Source: Spirochaetales bacterium
GTDB lineage: Bacteria > Spirochaetota > Spirochaetia > Treponematales > Treponemataceae
Reading direction: 5' to 3'
Length of the DNA stretch: 64,000 nt
Assembly: GCA_030540405.1 (NCBI GenBank)
Contig: JAUNWH010000009.1
Span: 2,948-66,947, forward strand
Shown here: positions 2,360-63,539 of the stretch, piece after piece
Position numbering within the stretch: position 1 is the first letter of the stretch
How the letters are laid out: each line of letters begins with the position of its first letter
Notes under the pieces: generated by a model
What the model saw: only the letters and a program-made list of their open reading frames with translations
The model's database searches: none
Told to the model about the DNA's origin: nothing
Program-made: the position numbers and the translations under genes

Positions 2360-4190
2360 AGTTTCCGGGGTTATGCTTTATGCAAAGACTCCGGGAATTA
2401 CAAGTTTTTCTTCTCTTTGGAGCATCAAGCATGCCTTGAAAACTGAAAAGGTCGGACATACTGGAACTTTGGATTCTTTTGCTGAAGGCTTGCTTGTTGT
2501 TTTGTCTGGCAATCTTACGCACCTTGTTCCTCATATAACTTCATTTACAAAAACTTATCGGGCTGTTGTTTGCTTCGGAAAAGAGACGGATACTCTCGAT
2601 CCGACCGGAGATGTTGTAAAAACTGGCGTGGCGGCTTCTAAAGAGCAAATTGAAACTGCGCTGAAAAAATTTACTGGAGCAGTTCTGCAAGTTCCGCCTG
2701 TTTATTCTGCGCTTCATGTTGACGGAAAACGTGCAAGCGATCTTGTCCGCGGCGGAAATGAAATTCATCTTGAAAGCAGGCAGGTTTTTATTTATAAAAA
2801 TGAGCTTCTTGATTTTAAAGAGCCTTCAGAAAATGACGCTTGCTCTTATGCGCTGCTTGAAATTGTCTGCTCAAAAGGAACTTACATCCGCGCGCTTGCC
2901 AGAGACATTGCCTCTAGCCTTGGAACTTGTGCCCATTTATGCGCTTTGAGGCGGACTAAAGTCGGACCGTTTGAATTAAAAGATGCGGCGTGTTTTGGCG
3001 AGCTAAAAGAATTTTCAATAGAAAACGGAATTCAAAATGCGCTTTATTTGCAAAAGGAAAAAGAGAAAATCCATCTTCCATTTGAACAAAAAATAAAAAA
3101 ACGCCATGAAGATTCAGCTGAAAAAATTCAAGACATAAGAAATCACTTTTTGCTTTTTTCTCAAAAACTAGCGTCGCTTTGCGGTTTTAGCTGCGATATT
3201 TTAAAGCCTGAATTTGAAAAGTCATATTTGAATGGCCGTCCGCTTTCACAGAAAATGTTTGACATTGCAAGCTGCGGAAATGTTGAAAATGAAATTGCTG
3301 TTTTTTATTCGTCTGGAAATTTCTCCGGAATAATTTGCAAAAACAAAGATTCAAAACTTTCTTATGGTTTTGTTGTTCCGCCTGAAAAAAAAGAATTCAA
3401 AATTTTTTCTTGGAATGAATTTTGCAGTTTGAATTTTCCGATTGAATGGAAATCAAAAGGCTGCGCTCTTACGGTCGGAAGTTTTGAAGCCGTTCATGCA
3501 GGCCATGCTGCGCTTATAAAAACTGCTGTTGCTCAAAAAAAATTTATTTCGGGAATTATAACTTTTTCTTCGCAGATAAAAAATGACGGAACTTGTTCAA
3601 TTTTTACTCTTGAGCAGCGGCTGGAATTTTTCAAGGAGCTTGGACTTGACTTTGCTGTTGTGATTGACTTTACGCAGGATTTTTCAAAAATTGAGGGAGC
3701 TGATTTTATTGAAACTTTGATTTCAGTTTGCGGAATGAAATTTCTTGCTGAGGGTAGCGATTTTAAATGCGGCTACAAAGGCTCGCTTAATATGGAAGAA
3801 CTTGAAAAAATTTCACAGGAAAAAAATTTCGAGCTTTGCAAACAGGATTACGTTTTTTTTGAAGATGAAAAAATCAGCTCAAGCCGCATAAAAAAAGAAA
3901 TTCTTGCAGGAAATTTTATATGCGCGCAGAAAATGCTTTTGCGTCCGTTTGCTTTGGATGTCCGCGGAATTTCATTGAAAGAAAAATCTGCTGGAAATGA
4001 AAATTCGATTTTTGAATTCCGCAATGAGAAAAATCAGATTTTGCCAAAGAACGGAATTTATAAAGTTGCTGCGCTTGATTCTGACGGAAATGTTTTTCAC
4101 ACAACTCTTGAGATTGAAAACGAAAATCTTAGGATTGCGCTTCCGACTTCTGGAATTGCAGAAAAAACAGTCGAGATAAAATTTTGCTGA
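2286..4190 (+). CDS. truB: Fused tRNA pseudouridine-55 synthase (TruB) and FAD synthetase (RibF-like) protein
   Basis: N-terminal half has KTPGITSF...GHTGTLDSFAEGLLVV (TruB catalytic Asp motif). C-terminal half has TVGSFEAVHAGHAALI (FMN adenylyltransferase GxFDxxHxGH). One uninterrupted ORF. True start is probably ATG 2328 or 2373, because 2286 overlaps rbfA. Confidence 0.8.
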   Translation: MRWKMNLGKLKSAKMSKMPEKTKNKVSGVMLYAKTPGITSFSSLWSIKHALKTEKVGHTGTLDSFAEGLLVVLSGNLTHLVPHITSFTKTYRAVVCFGKETDTLDPTGDVVKTGVAASKEQIETALKKFTGAVLQVPPVYSALHVDGKRASDLVRGGNEIHLESRQVFIYKNELLDFKEPSENDACSYALLEIVCSKGTYIRALARDIASSLGTCAHLCALRRTKVGPFELKDAACFGELKEFSIENGIQNALYLQKEKEKIHLPFEQKIKKRHEDSAEKIQDIRNHFLLFSQKLASLCGFSCDILKPEFEKSYLNGRPLSQKMFDIASCGNVENEIAVFYSSGNFSGIICKNKDSKLSYGFVVPPEKKEFKIFSWNEFCSLNFPIEWKSKGCALTVGSFEAVHAGHAALIKTAVAQKKFISGIITFSSQIKNDGTCSIFTLEQRLEFFKELGLDFAVVIDFTQDFSKIEGADFIETLISVCGMKFLAEGSDFKCGYKGSLNMEELEKISQEKNFELCKQDYVFFEDEKISSSRIKKEILAGNFICAQKMLLRPFALDVRGISLKEKSAGNENSIFEFRNEKNQILPKNGIYKVAALDSDGNVFHTTLEIENENLRIALPTSGIAEKTVEIKFC

Positions 4191-4830: not shown

Positions 4831-6921
4831 ATGATACAAAGAGTAACCAGAAAAATTGGTGATCAGGAACTTATTCTTGAAACTGGAAAAATCGGAAAGC
4901 AGGCAAATGGCTGTGTTTATGCTCAGATCGGCGGAACTGCTGTAATTGCAACCGTATGCGCTTCAAGTGAAGCAAAAGAAGGACTTGACTTTGTTCCTGT
5001 AACAGTTGAGTACAACGAAAAATTTTATGCCGCTGGAAAAATTCCTGGCGGATTTGTAAAACGTGAAGGCCGCCCAAAAGATAAGGAAATTCTTGTAAGC
5101 CGTCTTATTGACCGCCCGATGCGTCCTCTTTTTGAAACATCTTTTGGCCGTGAAATTCAGATCGTTCCAACTTGCGTTTCTATTGACGGCGTGAATCCTC
5201 CAGACATTCTTGCAGTTCTTGCTTCGAGCGCGGCTGTTTCTATTTCTGACATTCCTTTCCACGGACCTGTTGCAGGTGTTCGCGTTGGATATTTGAATGG
5301 CGAGTATATTTTGAATCCGACTTATGAGCAGATGGAAAAAATTCAGCTTGAAATTGTTGTTGCCGGAACTAAAGACGGTTTTACAATGGTTGAAGGCGGC
5401 GCAAACGAAGTTTCAGAGGAAGTTATGCTTGGAGCTTTGGAAAAAGCGCAGGGATTTATTACCGATATGTGCTTGCTTCAGGAAGAACTTGTAAAACTTG
5501 CCGGAAAAGAAAAACTTCCGCTTGCACCTCTTGATGTAAAACTTGAAAACGCAGATGCAATCAAAGCTGAAGCAATTCCTCTTATGCAGGAAGCTTGTTT
5601 CCAGAAAGGAAAAATGGCGCGCGGAAATGCGGTTAAGGCTGTAAAAGCTAAGATTGCAGAAAAATATTCAGAGCAGCTTGAAGATGAAATTCAGGCAAAA
5701 TTGTTCAACACTTTGTTTGATGACATTCAGTATGATTTGCTTCGCTCAAGCATTCTTGAAAAAGGTCTTCGCATTGACGGCCGCGGCACAGAAGATATTC
5801 GCCCGATTACTTGCGAAGTAAATGTTCTTCCTCGTCCTCATGGTTCAGCTTTGTTTACCCGTGGCGAAACTCAGTCGTTGGCTGTAACAACTTTGGGAAC
5901 TGCAATGGATGAGCAGGTTTACGATGACATTGAAGGCGACAGAAGCGAAAACTTTATTCTTCATTATAATTTCCCTCCATATTCTGTTGGTGAAGTTGGA
6001 AAGCTTACAACTGGCCGCCGTGAAATTGGACACGGAAATCTTGCACGCCGTTCTTTAGCTCCGATGATTCCTTCAAGAAGCGAATTCCCTTATACAATCC
6101 GTGTTGTTTCTGAAATCATGGAATCTAACGGTTCTTCTTCTCAGGCTTCAACTTGTGGCGGATGCTTGTCTTTGCTTGCTGCTGGTGTTCCTATGAAAAA
6201 AATGGTTGCCGGAATTGCAATGGGACTTATCACTGACGGACCGCAGTACAAAAAATATGCAATTCTCTCTGACATTTTGGGAGAAGAAGATCATCTTGGC
6301 GATATGGACTTTAAGGTTGCCGGAACTCGCGATGGAATTACAGGATTCCAAATGGATATAAAAATTGCCGGCGTTTCCATGGATATTATGAGACGCGCTC
6401 TTGAACAGGCAAAACGCGGACGTAATCACATTCTTGACATAATGGAAAAATGCATCAGCAAGCCTCAGCCAATCAGCCCTTACGCTCCAAAAATTGAAAC
6501 AATGAAAATCGCTGTTGATAAAATCGGCGCTTTGATTGGGCCGGGCGGAAAAAATGTAAAAGCTCTTTGCCAGCAGTACAATGTTACAATCAATACTGAA
6601 GATGACGGAACTGTTACAATTTATGGCAAGTCTGGAGTTTCTACTGACGCTGCAAAAGCTGCTATCAAGGGAATCTGCGAAGATCCAGAGCCAGGCACAA
6701 TTTATCAGGGAACTGTAAAGCGCATTATGGATTTTGGCGCGTTTATAGAAATTCTTCCGGGGAAAGAAGGACTTTGCCACATTTCAAAACTTTCAAGAAA
6801 TCGTGTTGAAAAAGTAAGCGATGTTCTTAAAGAAGGCCAGGTTATTCCTGTAAAATTGCTTGAAGTTGACAAAATGGGTCGCTTGAATTTGAGTTACATT
6901 GATGCAATTGAAAGCAAATAA
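4831..6921 (+). CDS. pnp: Polyribonucleotide nucleotidyltransferase (PNPase)
   Basis: 696 aa with two RNase PH domains followed by KH and S1 domains (GTVKRIMDFGAFIEILPGKEGLCHISKL). Confidence 0.97.
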   Translation: MIQRVTRKIGDQELILETGKIGKQANGCVYAQIGGTAVIATVCASSEAKEGLDFVPVTVEYNEKFYAAGKIPGGFVKREGRPKDKEILVSRLIDRPMRPLFETSFGREIQIVPTCVSIDGVNPPDILAVLASSAAVSISDIPFHGPVAGVRVGYLNGEYILNPTYEQMEKIQLEIVVAGTKDGFTMVEGGANEVSEEVMLGALEKAQGFITDMCLLQEELVKLAGKEKLPLAPLDVKLENADAIKAEAIPLMQEACFQKGKMARGNAVKAVKAKIAEKYSEQLEDEIQAKLFNTLFDDIQYDLLRSSILEKGLRIDGRGTEDIRPITCEVNVLPRPHGSALFTRGETQSLAVTTLGTAMDEQVYDDIEGDRSENFILHYNFPPYSVGEVGKLTTGRREIGHGNLARRSLAPMIPSRSEFPYTIRVVSEIMESNGSSSQASTCGGCLSLLAAGVPMKKMVAGIAMGLITDGPQYKKYAILSDILGEEDHLGDMDFKVAGTRDGITGFQMDIKIAGVSMDIMRRALEQAKRGRNHILDIMEKCISKPQPISPYAPKIETMKIAVDKIGALIGPGGKNVKALCQQYNVTINTEDDGTVTIYGKSGVSTDAAKAAIKGICEDPEPGTIYQGTVKRIMDFGAFIEILPGKEGLCHISKLSRNRVEKVSDVLKEGQVIPVKLLEVDKMGRLNLSYIDAIESK

Positions 6922-25289: not shown

Positions 25290-25315
25290 GGCTGTCTAAA
25301 ATGGCAGCCTTTTTT
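25290..25315 (+). terminator. Terminator after hpf
   Basis: 7-bp stem GGCTGTC / GGCAGCC (one G-U pair), loop TAAAAT, then T6. Abuts the rpoN stop codon. Confidence 0.55.
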
Positions 25316-26747
25316 ATTGTCTGTTGTATGAAGAATCTATGCTGAGCCTGCTTCTGTATTTTGCAACTGTTCTGCGTGCAATTTTTATTCCAGATTTTTC
25401 TAGCTCTTCTGAAAGTTTTTGGTCGCTCATTTTTTTTCCGACGGAAGAGTTCAGTATTTTTTTTAGCTCTGCCATTGCTTTGTCTTGGCTTATTGTTTTG
25501 TTTTTTTTGCTTGCGGCGTTTGTGAAAAAATATTTTATTTCAAAACGTCCCCATTCACATTGAAGAAATTTGCTGTTTGCCATTCGTGAAATTGTTGTTT
25601 CGTGGACTTTAAGTTTGTCCGCAATGTCTTGCTGTCTTAAAGGAACCAAGTTGCCTTGCCCGTGCAGGAAAAAATCAGTTTGAATCCGCACAATTTCTAT
25701 GCAGGCCTTTAAAAGCGTGCTTTGCCTGAATTCCAAAGTGTCTAAAAAATCTTTTGCTTTTTTTATTTCAGTTTTTATTGATGAAGAATTTTTTTCATTG
25801 TTTTTTGCAAGCTTTAAAAATTCCGGGTTTATTGAAATTTGCGGGAAGTTGTCTTTTGCAAGCCTCACGTTCCAGGAATTTTTTCCAGCCGAAACAATGT
25901 TATCTTCAATCTGATTTTCTTGAAATCCTTCCTGAATTTTTTCCACGTAGACATCTGGAGAAATAAAATGAATTTCTTTTGTGCTGAAATTTCTCGCAGG
26001 AAAAGGATCTAGCGTCCGTATAAAATTAATGGCTTTTTCCACATCTTGAATTGTAGGATTTAAATTTAGATATTTTTCATTTTGGGAATTTGCAAAAAGT
26101 TTTTTCTGTTCCAAAAGATATTCTTGGATTTTCTGGAGAACTTTTTCAGGACGAGGCGGATCAAGAAATTTTAGTTTTCCGTCTAAAATAAAAATTGCAA
26201 GAAGCGGCGCATTTTCTTTTTGTTCTGCCTGCACAAGCAAGCTTTCTTCTGTGTTTGTAACGCACACTCCGCAAGGTTCAAGCTGTCTTACAATTCTAAT
26301 GCATTTTTCCAAAAGTCCCGGTGTTTGCAGTTTGTCTTTTTTGTCAAGAAGTGAAATCGGCGCAAGAATATAAAATCCTTTTGCGTCAAGATTGTAGATG
26401 AGTTTTTCGCATAAAGTTTTTTCAGTTGCGCCAAGACGCATTGCATTCAGCTGGGACAAAAGATGTTCCTGCAAAGATTCCCGCTCATCCGCTTTTGCTT
26501 CAAGCGCCGCCTGAAAATTTTCACTTGCTTCTTCGCCGCTTGCACTTGCTGATGATACTTTTGTTCCGTCCCAGTTTGTTCTGTCTTTTGTTATGACTAG
26601 CGCAGGATTTTCTTCCGCAGCTTTATAGATTTCTTCAGTCAAATCTTTTGAGTTCATGGCTAAAAGTTTTAATGCCTGAATTTGCTTTTGGCTCATTATT
26701 TGAATTTGAGACTGAATCTGTCTTTGCTGAAATTCTAATCCTGTCAT
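25314..26747 (-). CDS. rpoN: RNA polymerase sigma-54 factor
   Basis: 477 aa. Gln-rich N-terminus (QQRQIQSQIQIMSQKQIQ), HTH region and RpoN box ARRTVAKYR. Confidence 0.95.
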   Translation of the reverse strand: MTGLEFQQRQIQSQIQIMSQKQIQALKLLAMNSKDLTEEIYKAAEENPALVITKDRTNWDGTKVSSASASGEEASENFQAALEAKADERESLQEHLLSQLNAMRLGATEKTLCEKLIYNLDAKGFYILAPISLLDKKDKLQTPGLLEKCIRIVRQLEPCGVCVTNTEESLLVQAEQKENAPLLAIFILDGKLKFLDPPRPEKVLQKIQEYLLEQKKLFANSQNEKYLNLNPTIQDVEKAINFIRTLDPFPARNFSTKEIHFISPDVYVEKIQEGFQENQIEDNIVSAGKNSWNVRLAKDNFPQISINPEFLKLAKNNEKNSSSIKTEIKKAKDFLDTLEFRQSTLLKACIEIVRIQTDFFLHGQGNLVPLRQQDIADKLKVHETTISRMANSKFLQCEWGRFEIKYFFTNAASKKNKTISQDKAMAELKKILNSSVGKKMSDQKLSEELEKSGIKIARRTVAKYRSRLSIDSSYNRQ

Positions 26748-56194: not shown

Positions 56195-57484
56195 TTATTC
56201 TATGGCTGAAAACGTTCTCTTGGAGTATTTTCTTATTTGCGAAAGTGCTTTTACTCCGATTTTTGGATTTTTTTCTATGAGCTTTTGGAACACGGAATAA
56301 GGGATTTTTATGATTTTTGATTTTCCAATTGAAACGGCGTCTTCCTGTCGGTGCTTCTTTAAAAGACATTCGCCTTCGCCAAAAAATGCGCCTTGATTTA
56401 AAACCTGTCCTTCATTTTTGTGTATAAGCAAAATGCTTCCGCTCGCAATGTAAAAGCAGAATTCACTTTTTGAATTTTTTCTGTATACAAAGTTTCCGTC
56501 GTTGAAATTTAATGCGTGGGAATTTTTCTTAAGAAGAAAATACGGATTTATAAAAAGAAACCGCTTTATGTTTGAAAGAAAATTTCCATCTTGTTTTTCA
56601 GGCAGAAGATAAAGCTCGCATAAAAGCAGCGTTTCAAAAAACTGATAGACGTAAAGCCACTGCGCAAAAAAGAAAAAAATTATAAAGAAAAAAAACACGC
56701 CCATAAGAATTACAATGATGTTACTTAAAACTCCGTAGACCATGTTGTAGCGGTTTATATTTACAAACAGGTGGAAGACTTTTGTAAGAATCCAAAACGA
56801 AGCGCAAGTTCCTGCAGAAGATAAAATGCTTATTCCCCAGGACGGATTTGTTCTGCTTCCAAATTTATACGTGAAAGCTGTTGCCGCAAATAAAATTATA
56901 AACGGAACAAAGCCAGCCGCTGTTTTAGAAATCAAATCTGCAATGTGATTCAGAGGCTCAAGAATTCCGTAGAACTTTGGAACAAGCACTATTGTCTTTA
57001 AACTGATTGCTATGAAAATTATCAGCGAAAATAAAATTACAAAAAGCGCTTCCCCGATGAAAACAAGAAACATATTTTTTACAGGACGAGACTTTGCATC
57101 TTTTCCAAAAATTCTTTTCAGACCTACAATCACCGAACTGAAAAATCTTCTTGACATCCAGACTACAGCCGCAATAATCACAACTTCAAAATTTGTAATA
57201 AGCTTAAGCGACTTTGGAAGCGAATCTTCAATGCTTATAATCTGGCTTGAAAACGGACTTGAAGAAATTAGCGCGGAAACAGTTTCCGGGGAAGCGTGCA
57301 GACCCCTAAGAAGCACAACGCAAATAATCATGCTGATTGGAACAACTGAAAGCAAAAATCCAAATGCGCAGGCAGAAGCAGAAGAAATCAAGTCGTTCGA
57401 AAAAAACAAACTTGAGCTTAAGTAAAGCGACTGCACAATGCTGAACAGCGAAATTTTTTTCAGCTGCTTTTTTCCTAAAGTCAT
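56195..57484 (-). CDS. YihY/BrkB-family membrane protein fused to a C-terminal cyclic-nucleotide-binding (CAP_ED) domain
   Basis: Six TM segments of the YihY type, then FYIASGSILLI...GAFFGEGECLL...IKIPYSVFQKLIEKNP (CAP_ED beta-roll with FGE). Confidence 0.75.
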   Translation of the reverse strand: MTLGKKQLKKISLFSIVQSLYLSSSLFFSNDLISSASACAFGFLLSVVPISMIICVVLLRGLHASPETVSALISSSPFSSQIISIEDSLPKSLKLITNFEVVIIAAVVWMSRRFFSSVIVGLKRIFGKDAKSRPVKNMFLVFIGEALFVILFSLIIFIAISLKTIVLVPKFYGILEPLNHIADLISKTAAGFVPFIILFAATAFTYKFGSRTNPSWGISILSSAGTCASFWILTKVFHLFVNINRYNMVYGVLSNIIVILMGVFFFFIIFFFFAQWLYVYQFFETLLLCELYLLPEKQDGNFLSNIKRFLFINPYFLLKKNSHALNFNDGNFVYRKNSKSEFCFYIASGSILLIHKNEGQVLNQGAFFGEGECLLKKHRQEDAVSIGKSKIIKIPYSVFQKLIEKNPKIGVKALSQIRKYSKRTFSAIE

Positions 57485-58380
57485 GAAAAATTGTGTCCGG
57501 GCTGGCTTGAAAAAGTTGAAGGCTTGGACTTGGATTTCGTTTTTGCCGCAAAGTTGTAGTAGTCCATTTGCGCATAGTCAGTGTCGTCCTTGCGGTTTTC
57601 ATTTATGGAAAGAATCATTTTGTCTTCAATCGTTTTAAAAACATATTGGCGGATTTCATCTTTTACAGCTGAAGGAGTTTGCGGCGCAAGAAGAAGCACC
57701 CAGATTGTTCCTTGTTCTGTTTTTTTTACGGCGAAAATAACGGCTTCTGTTACAACCTGCTTTGTTCCAAGCCTGAGCGTTACATCCTGCAATATGTAGT
57801 TTTTTGCAATTATGAGGCTTTCAAGGCCGGCGGGAATTTTTACAGCCATTCCAACAGAACTTAAGTCAAAAAGTTTGAGCTGGTGCATTTTGCTTCCGTG
57901 GTTCCAGAATAAAGCGGCGTCTTTGTCGTGCATTAAATTTGCCCGGATGTATTGCCGCCTTCCTTTTGCGTTTGTCTTGGTAAGAATATTTTGTATTCGC
58001 TCGGAAACTTTTTCTATTCCATCTGAAAAATCAATTACGCTGTTTTCTGAATCTGAAAATCTTGAGAACAGTTCAATTTCATTTGGCTTTATTTTTTCGG
58101 AAATGACGGTCGCCTGAATTGTCTTGAGGCTTTCTTCCTTATCAAAGCTGCGCAGAAAGTTGAACCAAGCTCCTATTGAAAGCTGCGCGTCAATGTTTAT
58201 AAATAGAACAGAACCGGGGTTTTTCCGCAGAAGATTCTTTGCGTCCCTGAAACTTTCGATAATGTAGACTTCATATTCTTTTTTCCGCAGACTGCTTATA
58301 ATGTCTTTTTTTACCGCATAAGCAGGATTCAAGAAGAATATTTTTCTGCCATACATATCGAAGTCTGTCTGTTCTGCCAT
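57481..58380 (-). CDS. Receiver-like (pseudo-REC) plus PilZ domain protein
   Basis: Canonical RRQYIR (RRxxxR) and DLSSVG (DxSxxG). The N-terminal 120 aa have an alternating beta/alpha receiver-like pattern without the acidic pocket. ATGA overlap with the downstream gene. Confidence 0.8.
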   Translation of the reverse strand: MAEQTDFDMYGRKIFFLNPAYAVKKDIISSLRKKEYEVYIIESFRDAKNLLRKNPGSVLFINIDAQLSIGAWFNFLRSFDKEESLKTIQATVISEKIKPNEIELFSRFSDSENSVIDFSDGIEKVSERIQNILTKTNAKGRRQYIRANLMHDKDAALFWNHGSKMHQLKLFDLSSVGMAVKIPAGLESLIIAKNYILQDVTLRLGTKQVVTEAVIFAVKKTEQGTIWVLLLAPQTPSAVKDEIRQYVFKTIEDKMILSINENRKDDTDYAQMDYYNFAAKTKSKSKPSTFSSQPGHNFS

Positions 58381-58512: not shown

Positions 58513-59973
58513 TTAGAAATCTGCGAGTTTTGGTGCCCGTGGATAAGGAATTACGTCGCGGATATTTTCCATCCCTGTAACGTAACGGATAAGGCGCTCA
58601 AAGCCTAGCCCGAATCCTGAGTGAGGCACGGTACCGAATCTGCGCAAATCAAGATACCATTGATAGTTTGACATATCCATCTTGCGTTCCTCGCACGCCT
58701 TGAGCAATTTTTCGTAGTTTTCTTCACGTTCAGAACCGCCAATCAGTTCACCAATTCCAGGAACAAGAACATCAACAGCCTTTACAGTTTTTCCGTCGTC
58801 ATTCTGTTTCATGTAGAAAGATTTTATTTCTTTTGGATAGTTAAAAACCATTACAGGGCAACCGAAAATCTTTTCTGTAAGATAACGTTCGTGTTCAGTT
58901 GCAATGTCGCAGCCCCAGTACGGCTTGAATTCAAATTTCGCTCCGTTCTTTTCTGCTTCTTCAAGTTTTGCAATCGCGTCTGTGTAAGAAATTCGCACGA
59001 ACTTTGCTTTTGCGACTTTTTCAAGGCTTTCAATAAGACCAGGCTGAATTCTTTTGTCAAAAAATTCCAAGTCTGAGCGACATTTTGTTAAAGCCCAGTT
59101 CAAAAGATATTTTACAAAATCTTCCTGGATATCCATGTCGTCATCAAGGTCAAAGAACGCCATTTCCGGCTCAATCATCCAGAATTCAGCCAAGTGGCGC
59201 GGAGTATTTGAATTTTCTGCGCGGAAAGTAGGTCCAAAAGTGTAAACGCGGCTTAATGCGGTTGCCATTGTTTCTGCTTCAAGCTGACCGGAAACTGTGA
59301 GCGATGCCTTTTTGCCGAAGAAATCTTTTGAATAGTCAACAATTTTATGCGCGTCCTCAATTTTCATTCCACCAGCGCCTGCTTTTACGCCAAGCTCAGC
59401 AATTTTTTCCATGGAAAGAGTTGTAACCTGAAACATTTCGCCTGCGCCTTCACAGTCAGAGCAAGTAATTTCCGGTGCGTTGATGTACTGGAATCCGCGC
59501 TCCTGAAAAAACGAGTGAACGGCAAAAGCCATCTGGTTTCGCACACGGTAAACTGCGCCAAAAGTATTTGTTCTGGCACGAAGATGAGCGTTTGTGCGAA
59601 GATATTCCATGGACATCCGGTTTTTCTGCAACGGATATTCTTCCGGATTGCATGTGCCAAGACATTTTAGGCTTTCAAGAGTAACTTCCACAGCCTGACC
59701 GCTAGCCGGCGAAGAAATCAGAAGCCCTTCCGCGCGGACAGAAGCCCCGGTATTCAATTTTTTTAATTCTTCTTCTATATTATTTACATTTGCATTTGGA
59801 GAAGGTGAATTTCTGTCAAAAGTAAGCTGAATGTTTGCGAAGCAGCTTCCGTCATTTACCTGAATGAAAACAAGATTTTTTGAATCGCGTACAGAACGAA
59901 TCCATCCGCAAACTGTAACTTTTTGACTTTCCGGTTTTGTAGAAAGCAAATCTTTGATAAGAATAGGTGTCAT
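58513..59973 (-). CDS. asnS: Asparagine--tRNA ligase
   Basis: Class IIb motifs including FRAENSNTPRHLAEFWMIEPE and GLGFERL. 486 aa. Confidence 0.93.
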   Translation of the reverse strand: MTPILIKDLLSTKPESQKVTVCGWIRSVRDSKNLVFIQVNDGSCFANIQLTFDRNSPSPNANVNNIEEELKKLNTGASVRAEGLLISSPASGQAVEVTLESLKCLGTCNPEEYPLQKNRMSMEYLRTNAHLRARTNTFGAVYRVRNQMAFAVHSFFQERGFQYINAPEITCSDCEGAGEMFQVTTLSMEKIAELGVKAGAGGMKIEDAHKIVDYSKDFFGKKASLTVSGQLEAETMATALSRVYTFGPTFRAENSNTPRHLAEFWMIEPEMAFFDLDDDMDIQEDFVKYLLNWALTKCRSDLEFFDKRIQPGLIESLEKVAKAKFVRISYTDAIAKLEEAEKNGAKFEFKPYWGCDIATEHERYLTEKIFGCPVMVFNYPKEIKSFYMKQNDDGKTVKAVDVLVPGIGELIGGSEREENYEKLLKACEERKMDMSNYQWYLDLRRFGTVPHSGFGLGFERLIRYVTGMENIRDVIPYPRAPKLADF

Positions 59974-60030: not shown

Positions 60031-60126
60031 GCGGTTCCTATTCTAAGCGGAAAGTGATTCCTGTTATAATAGGAAGGCAGTTCCTGTTTGAACAAAATAT
60101 TCATTCCTGCTGTAATAGGAACACTT
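60031..60126 (+). repeat. Four TTCCT-initiated units at exact 23-bp phasing (two diverged 46-bp tandem units)
   Basis: TTCCT at 60035, 60058, 60081 and 60104. Units 2 and 4 are near-palindromes TTCCTGTTATAATAGGAA and TTCCTGCTGTAATAGGAA. Confidence 0.85.
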
Positions 60127-60356
60127 TGTTTACTTTAGTAGGAATGTCTACAATTTTACACTGTATATAAATTTATACAGATAATTTTTTGCTTATCTGT
60201 CTACTTTTTTGTAATTTGATTCTGATTTTTCACTTTTTCTTTTTTCAGTAATATAATTTTTAGATTTTCTCTAAAATTGTATTTCCTTGAATTGCAAGAA
60301 AATATGTGTTAATTGAAATAAAAAAAAACTGTTTTTAAGCTGTGATCTTCTTAACT

Positions 60357-60372
60357 TGGCATAATATATGCT
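60357..60372 (+). promoter_or_regulatory. Candidate sigma-54 (-24/-12) promoter of the RpoS-like sigma gene
   Basis: TGGCAT-AATAT-ATGCT. GG and GC have exactly the spacing of the TGGCAC-N5-TTGCW consensus. The ATG lies 39 nt downstream. Confidence 0.6.
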
Positions 60373-60410
60373 ATTATACTATGAGATTAAAAAAGTTATG
60401 GAGTTTTGTT

Positions 60411-61229
60411 ATGGAAATTGATGTTGCCCACGGATACCTGGATTCATTGAAAAAATATCCGCTGCTTTCCGCCGATGAAGAAATCGCGCTTGCAAAAAGA
60501 ATCAAGTCTGGAGACAAGGAAGCGTTCAATCTTCTTGTAAATTCCAATCTTAGGCTTGTTGTGAGCGTTGCAGGAAGATTCAATAAAGGCGCATCTTGCA
60601 TTATGGATTTGATTCAGGAAGGAAACCTTGGACTTATGACTGCTGTCCAAAAATTTGATCCGGCATTTGGAACTAGATTTTCAACTTATGCCTACAGATG
60701 GATTGTGCAGCGTATAATGAAATTCATCAGTGCTAACAGTTCTCCGATTTTGCTTCCGGTGCACAGGGAATCTCTTTTGCGCCGTATCCAGAAGTTTCAG
60801 AATATTTTCTTTCAGCAGAACGGAAGAGAAGCCACGGTCAAGGAACTTGCGCTTTTTGCTGGAATTTCAGAAGAGAGGCTGAATGATGTTCTTGATACTT
60901 CTTATACAGTCGCATCTCTTGATGTTGAAGTTGCTGATGAAGGAAAAACGGTTTCGCTAGGCGATGTTATCCCGGACACGGCGTTTTCTCCAGAAGAACT
61001 TGCGGTCAGAGAGGATTCCAAAAGCTGCGTTAATTTTTTTATGGATTCTTTAACAGGAATAGAAAAGAGTGTTTTGTGGCATCGTTATAATTTTGACTAT
61101 GACTTGCATTCAAAAAGTTTGCGTGAAGTCGGTAAAATTGTCGGGCTGAGCCAAGAGGCGGTGCGCCAGGCTGAGCTCCGTGCCAAAAAACATCTTAAAT
61201 CTGCAATGGAGAGTGTTTTTGCTGTTTAG
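60411..61229 (+). CDS. Group-2-like alternative sigma-70 family factor (RpoS-like)
   Basis: Region 2 NLRLVVSVAGRF...DLIQEGNLGLMTAVQKFDP...FSTYAYRWIVQRI. Region 4 SLREVGKIVGLSQEAVRQAELRAKKHL. GGAG lies 7 nt before ATG 60411. 272 aa. Confidence 0.88.
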   Translation: MEIDVAHGYLDSLKKYPLLSADEEIALAKRIKSGDKEAFNLLVNSNLRLVVSVAGRFNKGASCIMDLIQEGNLGLMTAVQKFDPAFGTRFSTYAYRWIVQRIMKFISANSSPILLPVHRESLLRRIQKFQNIFFQQNGREATVKELALFAGISEERLNDVLDTSYTVASLDVEVADEGKTVSLGDVIPDTAFSPEELAVREDSKSCVNFFMDSLTGIEKSVLWHRYNFDYDLHSKSLREVGKIVGLSQEAVRQAELRAKKHLKSAMESVFAV

Positions 61230-61284: not shown

Positions 61285-61333
61285 GAGGGGCTTCGGTTGT
61301 GATTTTATTCAGCGCCGAAGCCTCTGTTTTTTT
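61285..61333 (+). terminator. Rho-independent terminator after the sigma gene
   Basis: GAGGGGCTTCGG ... CCGAAGCCTC (bulged stem) followed by TGTTTTTTT. Confidence 0.7.
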
Positions 61334-62590: not shown

Positions 62591-63539
62591 CGAAAATGCT
62601 CTTTCTGAAAACTGCAGCGGACAGTTCTTTTTGACAGGCTCGCAGATGTTCTATCTTATGAAAAATGTGAGCGAGTCTCTGGCCGGGCGTGTCGGAATTA
62701 TTTCGCTTTATTCGTTCAGCCGCCGGGAAATTTTCAGCCTTGATTCTGTTCCTTTTTTGCCGGCGAATGATTTTTCAAAAATCAAAAAGACTTCCGGAAA
62801 ATCTTCCGTTTTTGATGATATTTACCGCGGCGGAATGCCAAAAATGATTACAGACCCGGAGCTTTCTCCGGAGGATTTTTTTGGCTCTTATATGCAGACT
62901 TATTTGGAGCGCGACATCCGCGATTTAATCAATATAAAAAACGAGTCAAAATTCCTGAAATTTATTTCGTGTGCGGCCGCAAGAACTGCTCAGGATGTGA
63001 ATCTGTCTGACATTTCAAAAGATGTCGGAATCGACGGAAAGACGGCCGAAAGCTATCTGAGCATTCTTGTCGCATCCGGAATCGTCTATCTTCTTTCGCC
63101 TTATTCCGCAAACACGATAAAACGGATTGTAAAGCGTCCAAAGCTTTATTTCATGGACACGGGACTTTGCTGCTATTTGAGCCTCTGGAACAATCCTCAG
63201 GCTCTGGAAGTTTCCGCGATGGCAGGAAATATGTTTGAGACATACGTTGTTTCGGAAATCATAAAAAGCTATGCGAATGCCGGAATTGATGTGCGCAACA
63301 GGCTTTTTTACTACCGGGACAACAACAAAAAAGAAATTGACTTGCTGATAGTTCAGAACGGAAAAATCTATCCTGTCGAGATAAAAAAAGGAGCAAATCT
63401 GGCAAACGATGCCCTGAAGAATTTCAGCGTGCTTGAAAGCCTTGGAATGGAAACCGGAGACGGCGCGGTAATCTGTCAAAGCGATATGATAGTTCCGCTT
63501 GACAAAAAGAATAGCCTGATTCCATTTGAATATATTTGA
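62541..63539 (+). pseudogene. AAA ATPase of the AAA_14/DUF4143 family, 5'-truncated
   Basis: Frame is open from 62541 (YVDE...FFLTGSQMFYLM...SESLAGR). The DUF4143 block TYLERDIRDL...PKLYFMDTGL is intact, but the Walker A region is absent and replaced by the IS stub. Confidence 0.65.

Follow-up and report, generated by a model that had tools for sequence, protein, structure and literature searches.

The sigma factor gene, its ribosome-binding site and rpoN

The window, by which we mean the whole stretch of DNA analysed, comprises 64,000 nt from Spirochaetales bacterium (assembly GCA_030540405.1, contig JAUNWH010000009.1, positions 2,948 to 66,947 of the forward strand). It holds a gene for a group-2-type sigma-70 family factor and a gene for sigma-54, the coordinates of which are as follows:

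25314-26747, minus strand: rpoN (sigma-54), intact, 477 aa, recognised by its Pfam domains, TIGR02395 and the RpoN box
60400-60403, plus strand: ribosome-binding site GGAG, 7 nt 5' of the ATG of the sigma gene
60411-61229, plus strand: gene for the group-2-type sigma-70 family factor, 272 aa, from the ATG at 60411 to the end of the stop codon at 61229
61286-61333, plus strand: intrinsic terminator of the sigma gene, with a G+C-rich stem of 12 bp and seven U after it

Both genes had been called in a first-pass annotation of this DNA, and both calls are borne out. The reading frame, the GGAG motif and the sigma-70 regions 1.2, 2, 3 and 4 found by Pfam, with no region 1.1, agree on a group-2-like factor of 272 aa. 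The rpoN product has all three Pfam domains, scores 312 bits with TIGR02395 (cutoff, 277 bits) and carries the RpoN box ARRTVAKYR. The terminator has a folding energy of -27.8 kcal/mol (z = -3.6), and the sigma gene is predicted to be monocistronic.

The first-pass annotation also labeled the factor "RpoS-like", which fits its domain layout but not an assignment to the RpoS equivalog. The protein reaches no curated NCBIfam equivalog; its top model is of the cyanobacterial RpoD type (202 bits), and the proteobacterial RpoS model TIGR02394 gives 189.3 bits against a cutoff of 378.7. Among solved structures it matches Firmicute SigA (162 bits) and RpoS (127 bits), a roughly equal likeness. Like RpoS and other group-2 factors of proteobacteria, it spans regions 1.2 to 4.2 without region 1.1, within about 270-330 aa, and it is presumably a non-essential, alternative factor; in the structure comparison its likeness to SigA is at least as great as that to RpoS. 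Because the RpoS cutoff is missed and SigA and RpoS are about equally close, "RpoS-like" as used here is a statement about the predicted layout of a group-2-type factor, and not about orthology to proteobacterial RpoS.

A probable sigma-54 promoter element precedes the sigma gene

Upstream of the ribosome-binding site lie the following features:

60356-60372, plus strand: predicted sigma-54 -24/-12 promoter TTGGCATAATATATGCT (16-mer TGGCATAATATATGCT at 60357-60372), recognised by GG/GC spacing, matrix score and conservation
60383-60385, plus strand: predicted transcription start, 12-14 nt past the GC doublet, leaving a 5' UTR of 26-28 nt

The invariant GG and GC doublets described in the first-pass annotation are found at 60358-59 and 60370-71, separated by exactly the N10 that is typical of sigma-54 promoters. 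TGGCATAATATATGCT agrees with TGGCACG-N4-TTGCW at 9 of the 12 specified positions, and departs from the better form present in relatives by having TGGCAT, not TGGCAC, and ATGC, not TTGC. The end of the motif is 38 nt from the ATG, by a recount that corrects the 39 nt given earlier, and TGGCA is 54 nt from it. Going by the sigma-54 rule and by the mapped start of the Borrelia burgdorferi rpoS transcript, transcription would begin near 60383-85. As the in-frame ATG at 60381 would then fall outside the mRNA, this position agrees with 60411 as the start codon. The predicted 5' UTR contains the GGAG ribosome-binding site, and both the orientation of the element and its distance from the gene are plausible for a promoter.

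Taken by itself, such a motif is weak evidence, and its support comes from conservation. TGGCA-N7-TGCW is found once in the window, against 1.72 matches expected from shuffled sequence, and 79 of 100 shuffles had at least one match. For one pre-specified spacer of 400 nt, read on one strand, the probability of a chance match is about 0.5%. The estimate of "well below 1 percent" in the first-pass annotation is therefore about right for a spacer chosen beforehand but does not hold across the window. A more discriminating score was obtained with a sigma-54 matrix for which 13 orthologous sites from other species were used, a type of scoring that the first-pass annotation had proposed. With this matrix the site reaches 25.0 bits and is an outlier: the runner-up in the window scores 15.9 bits, and in 20 shuffled windows the top score was between 8.4 and 17.1 bits. 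The runner-up sites are at 3408, inside an ORF, and at 58990, and apart from the element at 60357-60372 no site in the window exceeded the shuffle range.

The element is conserved in front of orthologous sigma genes

Homology searches with the sigma factor listed first a large family from Treponema and Spirochaetaceae, whose members have about 270 aa, and then proteins of Clostridia and cyanobacteria; no Borrelia protein was among the matches listed. An exact copy of the window protein is not on record. A scan of genome contigs with generic sigma peptides gave mostly cyanobacterial group-2 sigma factors and at least nine spirochaete loci. Orthologous loci were fetched by protein similarity alone. 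The non-redundant set consists of 19 orthologue regions, with protein identities of 36-80%, from Treponema (including the cultured T. brennaborense), Spirochaeta sp. and unclassified metagenome-assembled spirochaetes.

TGGCAY-N5-NKGCW was present 28-100 nt 5' of the start codon in 18 of the 19 regions, and the other has TGGTAC with the same spacing. In the first set to be analysed all 15 regions, including those of Spirochaeta sp. and an unclassified spirochaete, had the element 41-100 nt before the start codon. Five further loci (L116 to L120) were held out and fetched after the criteria had been fixed. Four of these carry the strict element (L117, L118, L119 and L120, the last from the complete genome of T. 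brennaborense DSM 12168, CP002696, with the promoter near 1513867, which is L120 position 9940); L116 has the TGGTAC variant TTGGTACACTTATTGCA, in which GG and GC are correctly spaced. When the regions were aligned on the element, information was high only over (T)TGGCAC and TGC(W), and the flanks were unconserved. The element was absent from all 70 upstream regions of non-spirochaete homologues. Relatives at 92-96% protein identity (L089-L114) all have TGGCAC where the window has TGGCAT. Orthology of some of the loci is supported by synteny, in that a divergent asnS and a gene for a protein of about 300 aa without a Pfam match accompany the sigma gene in the window, L085, L086, L087 and L116.

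The GG/GC element is thus kept in orthologous intergenic regions, as the first-pass annotation had suggested should be checked. That the window site is a functionless chance match in AT-rich intergenic DNA would be compatible with the frequency of the loose pattern in shuffled windows, but not with an element that recurs in the orthologue regions while its flanks do not, that is missing from the controls, and that scores some 25 bits where no shuffle exceeds 17. We reject this reading, which the conservation data effectively refute. Most probably, 60356-72 is a functional sigma-54 (RpoN) promoter for the sigma gene, the expression of which would then depend on RpoN. The wiring of the RpoN-to-RpoS type proposed in the first-pass annotation gains support from the conserved element lying directly before a group-2-type sigma gene.

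Sigma-70-like sequences in the spacer

The spacer also contains matches to sigma-70 promoters:

60229-60257, plus strand: TTCACT-17-TATAAT, sigma-70-like, 10/12 match to consensus, possible basal promoter, between the upstream palindromes (below) and the sigma-54 promoter
60351-60380, plus strand: TTAACT-18-TATACT, sigma-70-like, 9/12 match to consensus
60369-60377, plus strand: extended -10-like TGcTATTAT, overlapping the -12 element, perfect TGn plus TATTAT, strain-specific

The earlier statement that no comparably good sigma-70 promoter was to be seen is thus not quite right, as TGcTATTAT and TTAACT-18-TATACT exist, although conservation favours sigma-54. The sigma gene could be driven mainly by housekeeping sigma-70 from one of these two, with TGGCA...TGC being incidental or secondary. 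The extended -10 is a perfect one and TTAACT-18-TATACT agrees at 9 of 12 positions, and in the window strain the extended -10 and an upstream sigma-70-like promoter could supply some or all of the transcription. Against this, the hexamer is not conserved even among close relatives: in those at 92-96% identity it reads TAATAT, TAGTAT, TAGTGT or TTATGT, whereas TGGCA and TGC are fixed, and it is missing from many distant orthologues. Promoter-like matches are also not more frequent in the spacer than expected (6 vs 4.3 in shuffles), and a sigma-70 promoter would not account for the constancy of TGGCA, 10 nt further upstream, across 18 of 19 lineages. We regard mainly sigma-70-driven expression as distinctly improbable. 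Because the hexamer varies among near relatives, we take the extended -10 to be a feature of the strain and the sigma-54 element to be the conserved one, and the extended -10 was demoted as the main promoter. Reading TTGGCA as a -35 box was also rejected, since no conserved -10 lies 16-18 nt downstream of it and the fixed TGC would remain without explanation. The promoter at 60229-57 is poorly conserved in close relatives.

An arrangement of this kind has been described at E. coli glmY, where a sigma-70 promoter overlaps the sigma-54 promoter and is conserved only in some genera (PMC3045617). There, as at the locus analysed here, the sigma-70 -10 hexamer lies over the -12 element and is kept in some lineages only. 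The window strain combines TGGCAT with a gained perfect extended -10, TGcTATTAT, which may mean a shift towards sigma-70 read-through. Searches of the spacer for known RNA elements gave no credible match in Rfam.

Tandem palindromes lie upstream of the sigma-54 promoter

We describe here conserved palindromes upstream of the sigma-54 promoter that are new: the orthologue regions share 18-bp palindromes with the consensus (C)TGTMTA-N6-TAKACA(G). In the window the corresponding features, to which no strand is assigned, are:

60145-60162: weaker palindrome TGTCTACAATTTTACACT, candidate activator site 1, 10/12 match, 212 nt 5' of TGGCA
60161-60180 (core 60162-79): perfect palindrome CTGTATATAAATTTATACAG, candidate UAS/enhancer, 12/12 match, 195 nt 5' of TGGCA
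60177-60200: inverted repeat ACAGATAA-N8-TTATCTGT, adjoining the palindrome, in a block (about 60176-60212) conserved in close relatives

With a threshold of at least 10 of 12 matches to TGTMTA-N6-TAKACA, one or more palindromes were found 104-337 nt upstream in 18 of the 19 orthologue regions, compared with 2 of 71 control regions. Most orthologue regions have two or three in tandem, at a spacing of 17-40 nt. The remainder of the window (63.5 kb) has two such sites, and 60162-79 is the sole perfect TGTAT-N8-ATACA in the window. As the motif was first noticed in 14 of the regions tested, independence from its discovery can be claimed only for the five held-out loci and for the cases next to activator genes described below; all five held-out loci have palindrome copies. 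The palindromes accompany the sigma gene regardless of the upstream neighbour, be it asnS, metH, a helicase gene or a radical-SAM gene. Helical phasing of AA/TT in the DNA between the palindromes and the promoter was significant in five orthologues; in the window spacer there was no significant signal of an intrinsic bend by this measure (p about 0.3).

The same module occurs beside activator genes

Metagenome contigs were scanned for the exact composite of CTGTAT-N8-ATACAG, 158-188 nt of spacer and TTGGCAY-N6-TGCW. Twenty-seven loci were retrieved, of which 21 have the sigma gene directly downstream. In three of the remaining six the module is accompanied by the gene of a GAFTGA-containing activator: this gene directly precedes the module in L108 and L112, and in L101 it lies one gene downstream. 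Extra copies of the palindrome, beyond what the scan pattern required, are present in L101 and L112. The L108 and L112 activators consist of a receiver, an AAA+ domain and a Fis-type helix-turn-helix, and their recognition regions are near-identical. GlrR is the top model for both; for the L112 protein the score is 472 bits against a cutoff of 763, with AtoC next, and JGI fragments that match its C-terminus carry the name GlrR. The L112 activator is, on these scores, GlrR/AtoC-like rather than a GlrR equivalog.

In L112 (10237-11927) and L108 (1646-3390) the activator genes are directly followed by CTGTAT(A/G)GAAAACCATACAG palindromes and a sigma-54 promoter. The gene driven by the module promoter codes for a 43-aa Cys-rich peptide in L112 and for a secreted Cys/Asp-rich repeat protein in L105 and L108. 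A different gene is found in L115 (Ga0099364_10026402, reverse strand 6621-6839), where a sigma-54 promoter, TTGGCACACTTCTTGCT, identical to that of L004, is preceded by three tandem palindromes of the TGTATA type and two of the form TGTGGT-N6-ACCACA. The module gene there is not a sigma gene but codes for a small protein whose N-terminus is hydrophobic and pilin-like (MGTQQILMIVLSVIIVGAAIAVG...). The same activator may have a second target in this pilin-like gene.

The geometry has a counterpart in E. coli, where the glmY sigma-54 promoter is preceded, at a distance of more than 100 bp, by three TGTCN10GACA sites to which GlrR binds (PMC3045617). GlrR (QseF) at glmY and the spirochaete loci have in common several 18-bp TGT-N12-ACA palindromes more than 100 bp 5' of the sigma-54 promoter. 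They differ in the half-site, which is TGTC at glmY and mostly TGTATA here, in the target, which is a small RNA there and a sigma factor gene here, and in phylum. Since the same module adjoins GlrR/AtoC-like genes, and since the site geometry and layout match those of GlrR, on balance we favour the view that the palindromes serve as an enhancer for an activator of the NtrC family.

An enhancer is not a given in spirochaetes, because Rrp2 of B. burgdorferi works without one: no site was found in the 238 bp upstream of its rpoS promoter (PMC1976401). The sigma-54 promoter could thus be real and the palindromes bound by some other, unrelated regulator that is a dimer, for instance a repressor of an upstream sigma-70 promoter or a protein like BosR or LexA, while the activator acts from solution as Rrp2 does in Borrelia. 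The sigma-70-like promoter at 60229-57, just 3' of the palindromes, would suit a repressor of this kind, and the CTGT...ACAG arms resemble the arm of a LexA box. That promoter is unconserved, however, and the palindromes go with the sigma gene whatever its upstream neighbour. Their distance of about 100-340 nt, their tandem copies and the 18-bp TGT-N12-ACA form are those of GlrR-type sites, and the same type of palindrome adjoins activator genes and sigma-54 promoters in unrelated loci. A role of the palindromes other than that of an enhancer therefore seems unlikely to us, if less so than sigma-70 control of the gene.

No GAFTGA-containing ORF was found in the 64-kb window, and an activator gene placed near the sigma gene, as in Borrelia, was looked for and rejected, there being none in the window or the spirochaete loci. 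T. denticola has an Hpk2-Rrp2 pair, of which Rrp2 (TDE1969) is a predicted sigma-54 activator described as unstudied (PMC12070737).

Other features of the neighbourhood

Between asnS and the palindromes, at 60035-60150 of the window, there is a run of TTCC(T)-N8-10-(A)GGAA inverted repeats, for example TTCCTGTTATAATAGGAA and TTCCTGCTGTAATAGGAA. These repeats persist in the close relatives L111 and L094 and are absent in L081, where asnS is not a neighbour; they may be an array of regulator sites for asnS. The protein of about 300 aa whose gene keeps company with asnS and the sigma gene in L085, L086, L087 and L116 is encoded in the window at 57481-58380, on the minus strand, and has 299 aa. 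Its RRQYIR and DLSSVG motifs recall the RxxxR and DxSxxG of c-di-GMP-binding PilZ domains; Pfam found neither PilZ nor any other match in it. Next to it, at 56195-57484 (minus strand), is the gene for a fusion protein with a BrkB-type membrane domain and, at the C-terminus, a cyclic-nucleotide-binding domain; this fusion also adjoins the syntenic block in L087. On the other side of the sigma gene, at 62631-63539 (plus strand), a DUF4143 protein with a TTG start has only the last part of AAA_14 (profile positions 95-128), and its gene may be 5'-truncated.

Comparison with the Borrelia cascade

In the Lyme disease spirochaete the central switch for virulence is the RpoN-RpoS cascade, a regulatory network that the Borrelia literature consulted describes as novel. 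The rpoS gene of B. burgdorferi has its promoter, TTGGCACAGTTTTTGCA, 62 bp 5' of the start codon; the transcription start has been mapped 14 bp past the GC, and expression of rpoS needs both RpoN and Rrp2 (PMC1976401). The promoter also requires BosR, which is bound beside it (PMC3037356).

In Borrelia (BB0771) as in the window, a spirochaete gene that is monocistronic and codes for a sigma-70 family protein of about 270 aa has a sigma-54 promoter immediately in front of it, which distinguishes both from E. coli rpoS, a gene not transcribed from a sigma-54 promoter. TTGGCACAGTTTTTGCA is nearly the same as the TTGGCAYnnnnnWTGCW of the Treponema-type loci, and the distance of 62 bp to the start codon falls among those found here (28-100 nt across the orthologues, 38 nt in the window). 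The two differ upstream of the promoter. Borrelia Rrp2 needs no enhancer there, whereas 18 of the 19 orthologue regions have the tandem palindromes 104-337 nt upstream, so that activation of the Treponema-type loci would not be expected to be enhancer-independent. A BosR-type repeat beside the promoter was not seen in the window. Moreover, no activator gene lies within 60 kb upstream of the sigma gene of the window, in contrast to the rrp2 of Borrelia, which is located a few genes from rpoS. Hence the circuit, which we liken to that of Borrelia by its promoter and layout and not by orthology, would be of the Rrp2-RpoN-RpoS kind, but probably enhancer-dependent.

A model for the circuit

According to the model that we propose, RNA polymerase with RpoN would bind the -24 GG and -12 GC elements at 60356-72 and form a closed complex that is unable to open alone. 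A response-regulator ATPase of the NtrC family (Rrp2/GlrR/AtoC type), encoded elsewhere in the genome, would bind as dimers to the palindromes at 60145-60179, once switched on by its kinase or a small phosphodonor. Both this use of the palindromes as activator-binding sites and the type of activator are what the sites and their neighbours in other loci lead us to infer. The activated ATPase would then oligomerise, loop the AT-rich DNA in between (about 195-212 nt) and open the promoter with ATP. The transcript, starting at about 60383-85, would have a short leader with the GGAG ribosome-binding site and be terminated at 61286-61333. Finally, the new sigma factor would redirect RNA polymerase to its own regulon, which would make the circuit a two-step sigma cascade.

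Implications

Every related spirochaete locus that was examined shows this layout, suggesting that a cascade of the RpoN-to-RpoS type is widespread in spirochaetes. It is conceivable, although we lean slightly against it, that the cascade is ancestral in Treponema, Spirochaeta and Borrelia and was enhancer-dependent from the outset, with TGTMTA-N6-TAKACA as an Rrp2-type site and the Borrelia form as a later simplification; as part of that same tentative reading, the cascade would not be an adaptation of Borrelia to life in tick and mammal. The literature searched yielded no account of a Treponema sigma gene driven by RpoN, although older notes may have predicted one, and the searched text of a 2025 survey of sigma-54 regulons that includes Spirochaetia does not mention such a gene.

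The whole of this result is a computational prediction, and its value is in the experiments that it makes possible. Should Treponema and Spirochaetaceae as a whole share this wiring, it would offer a testable target for the orphan Hpk2-Rrp2 pair and for RpoN in oral, gut and digital-dermatitis treponemes, together with a candidate DNA site for the activator. It would also provide an evolutionary frame for the origin of the enhancer-independent, BosR-assisted version of the cascade found in Borrelia.
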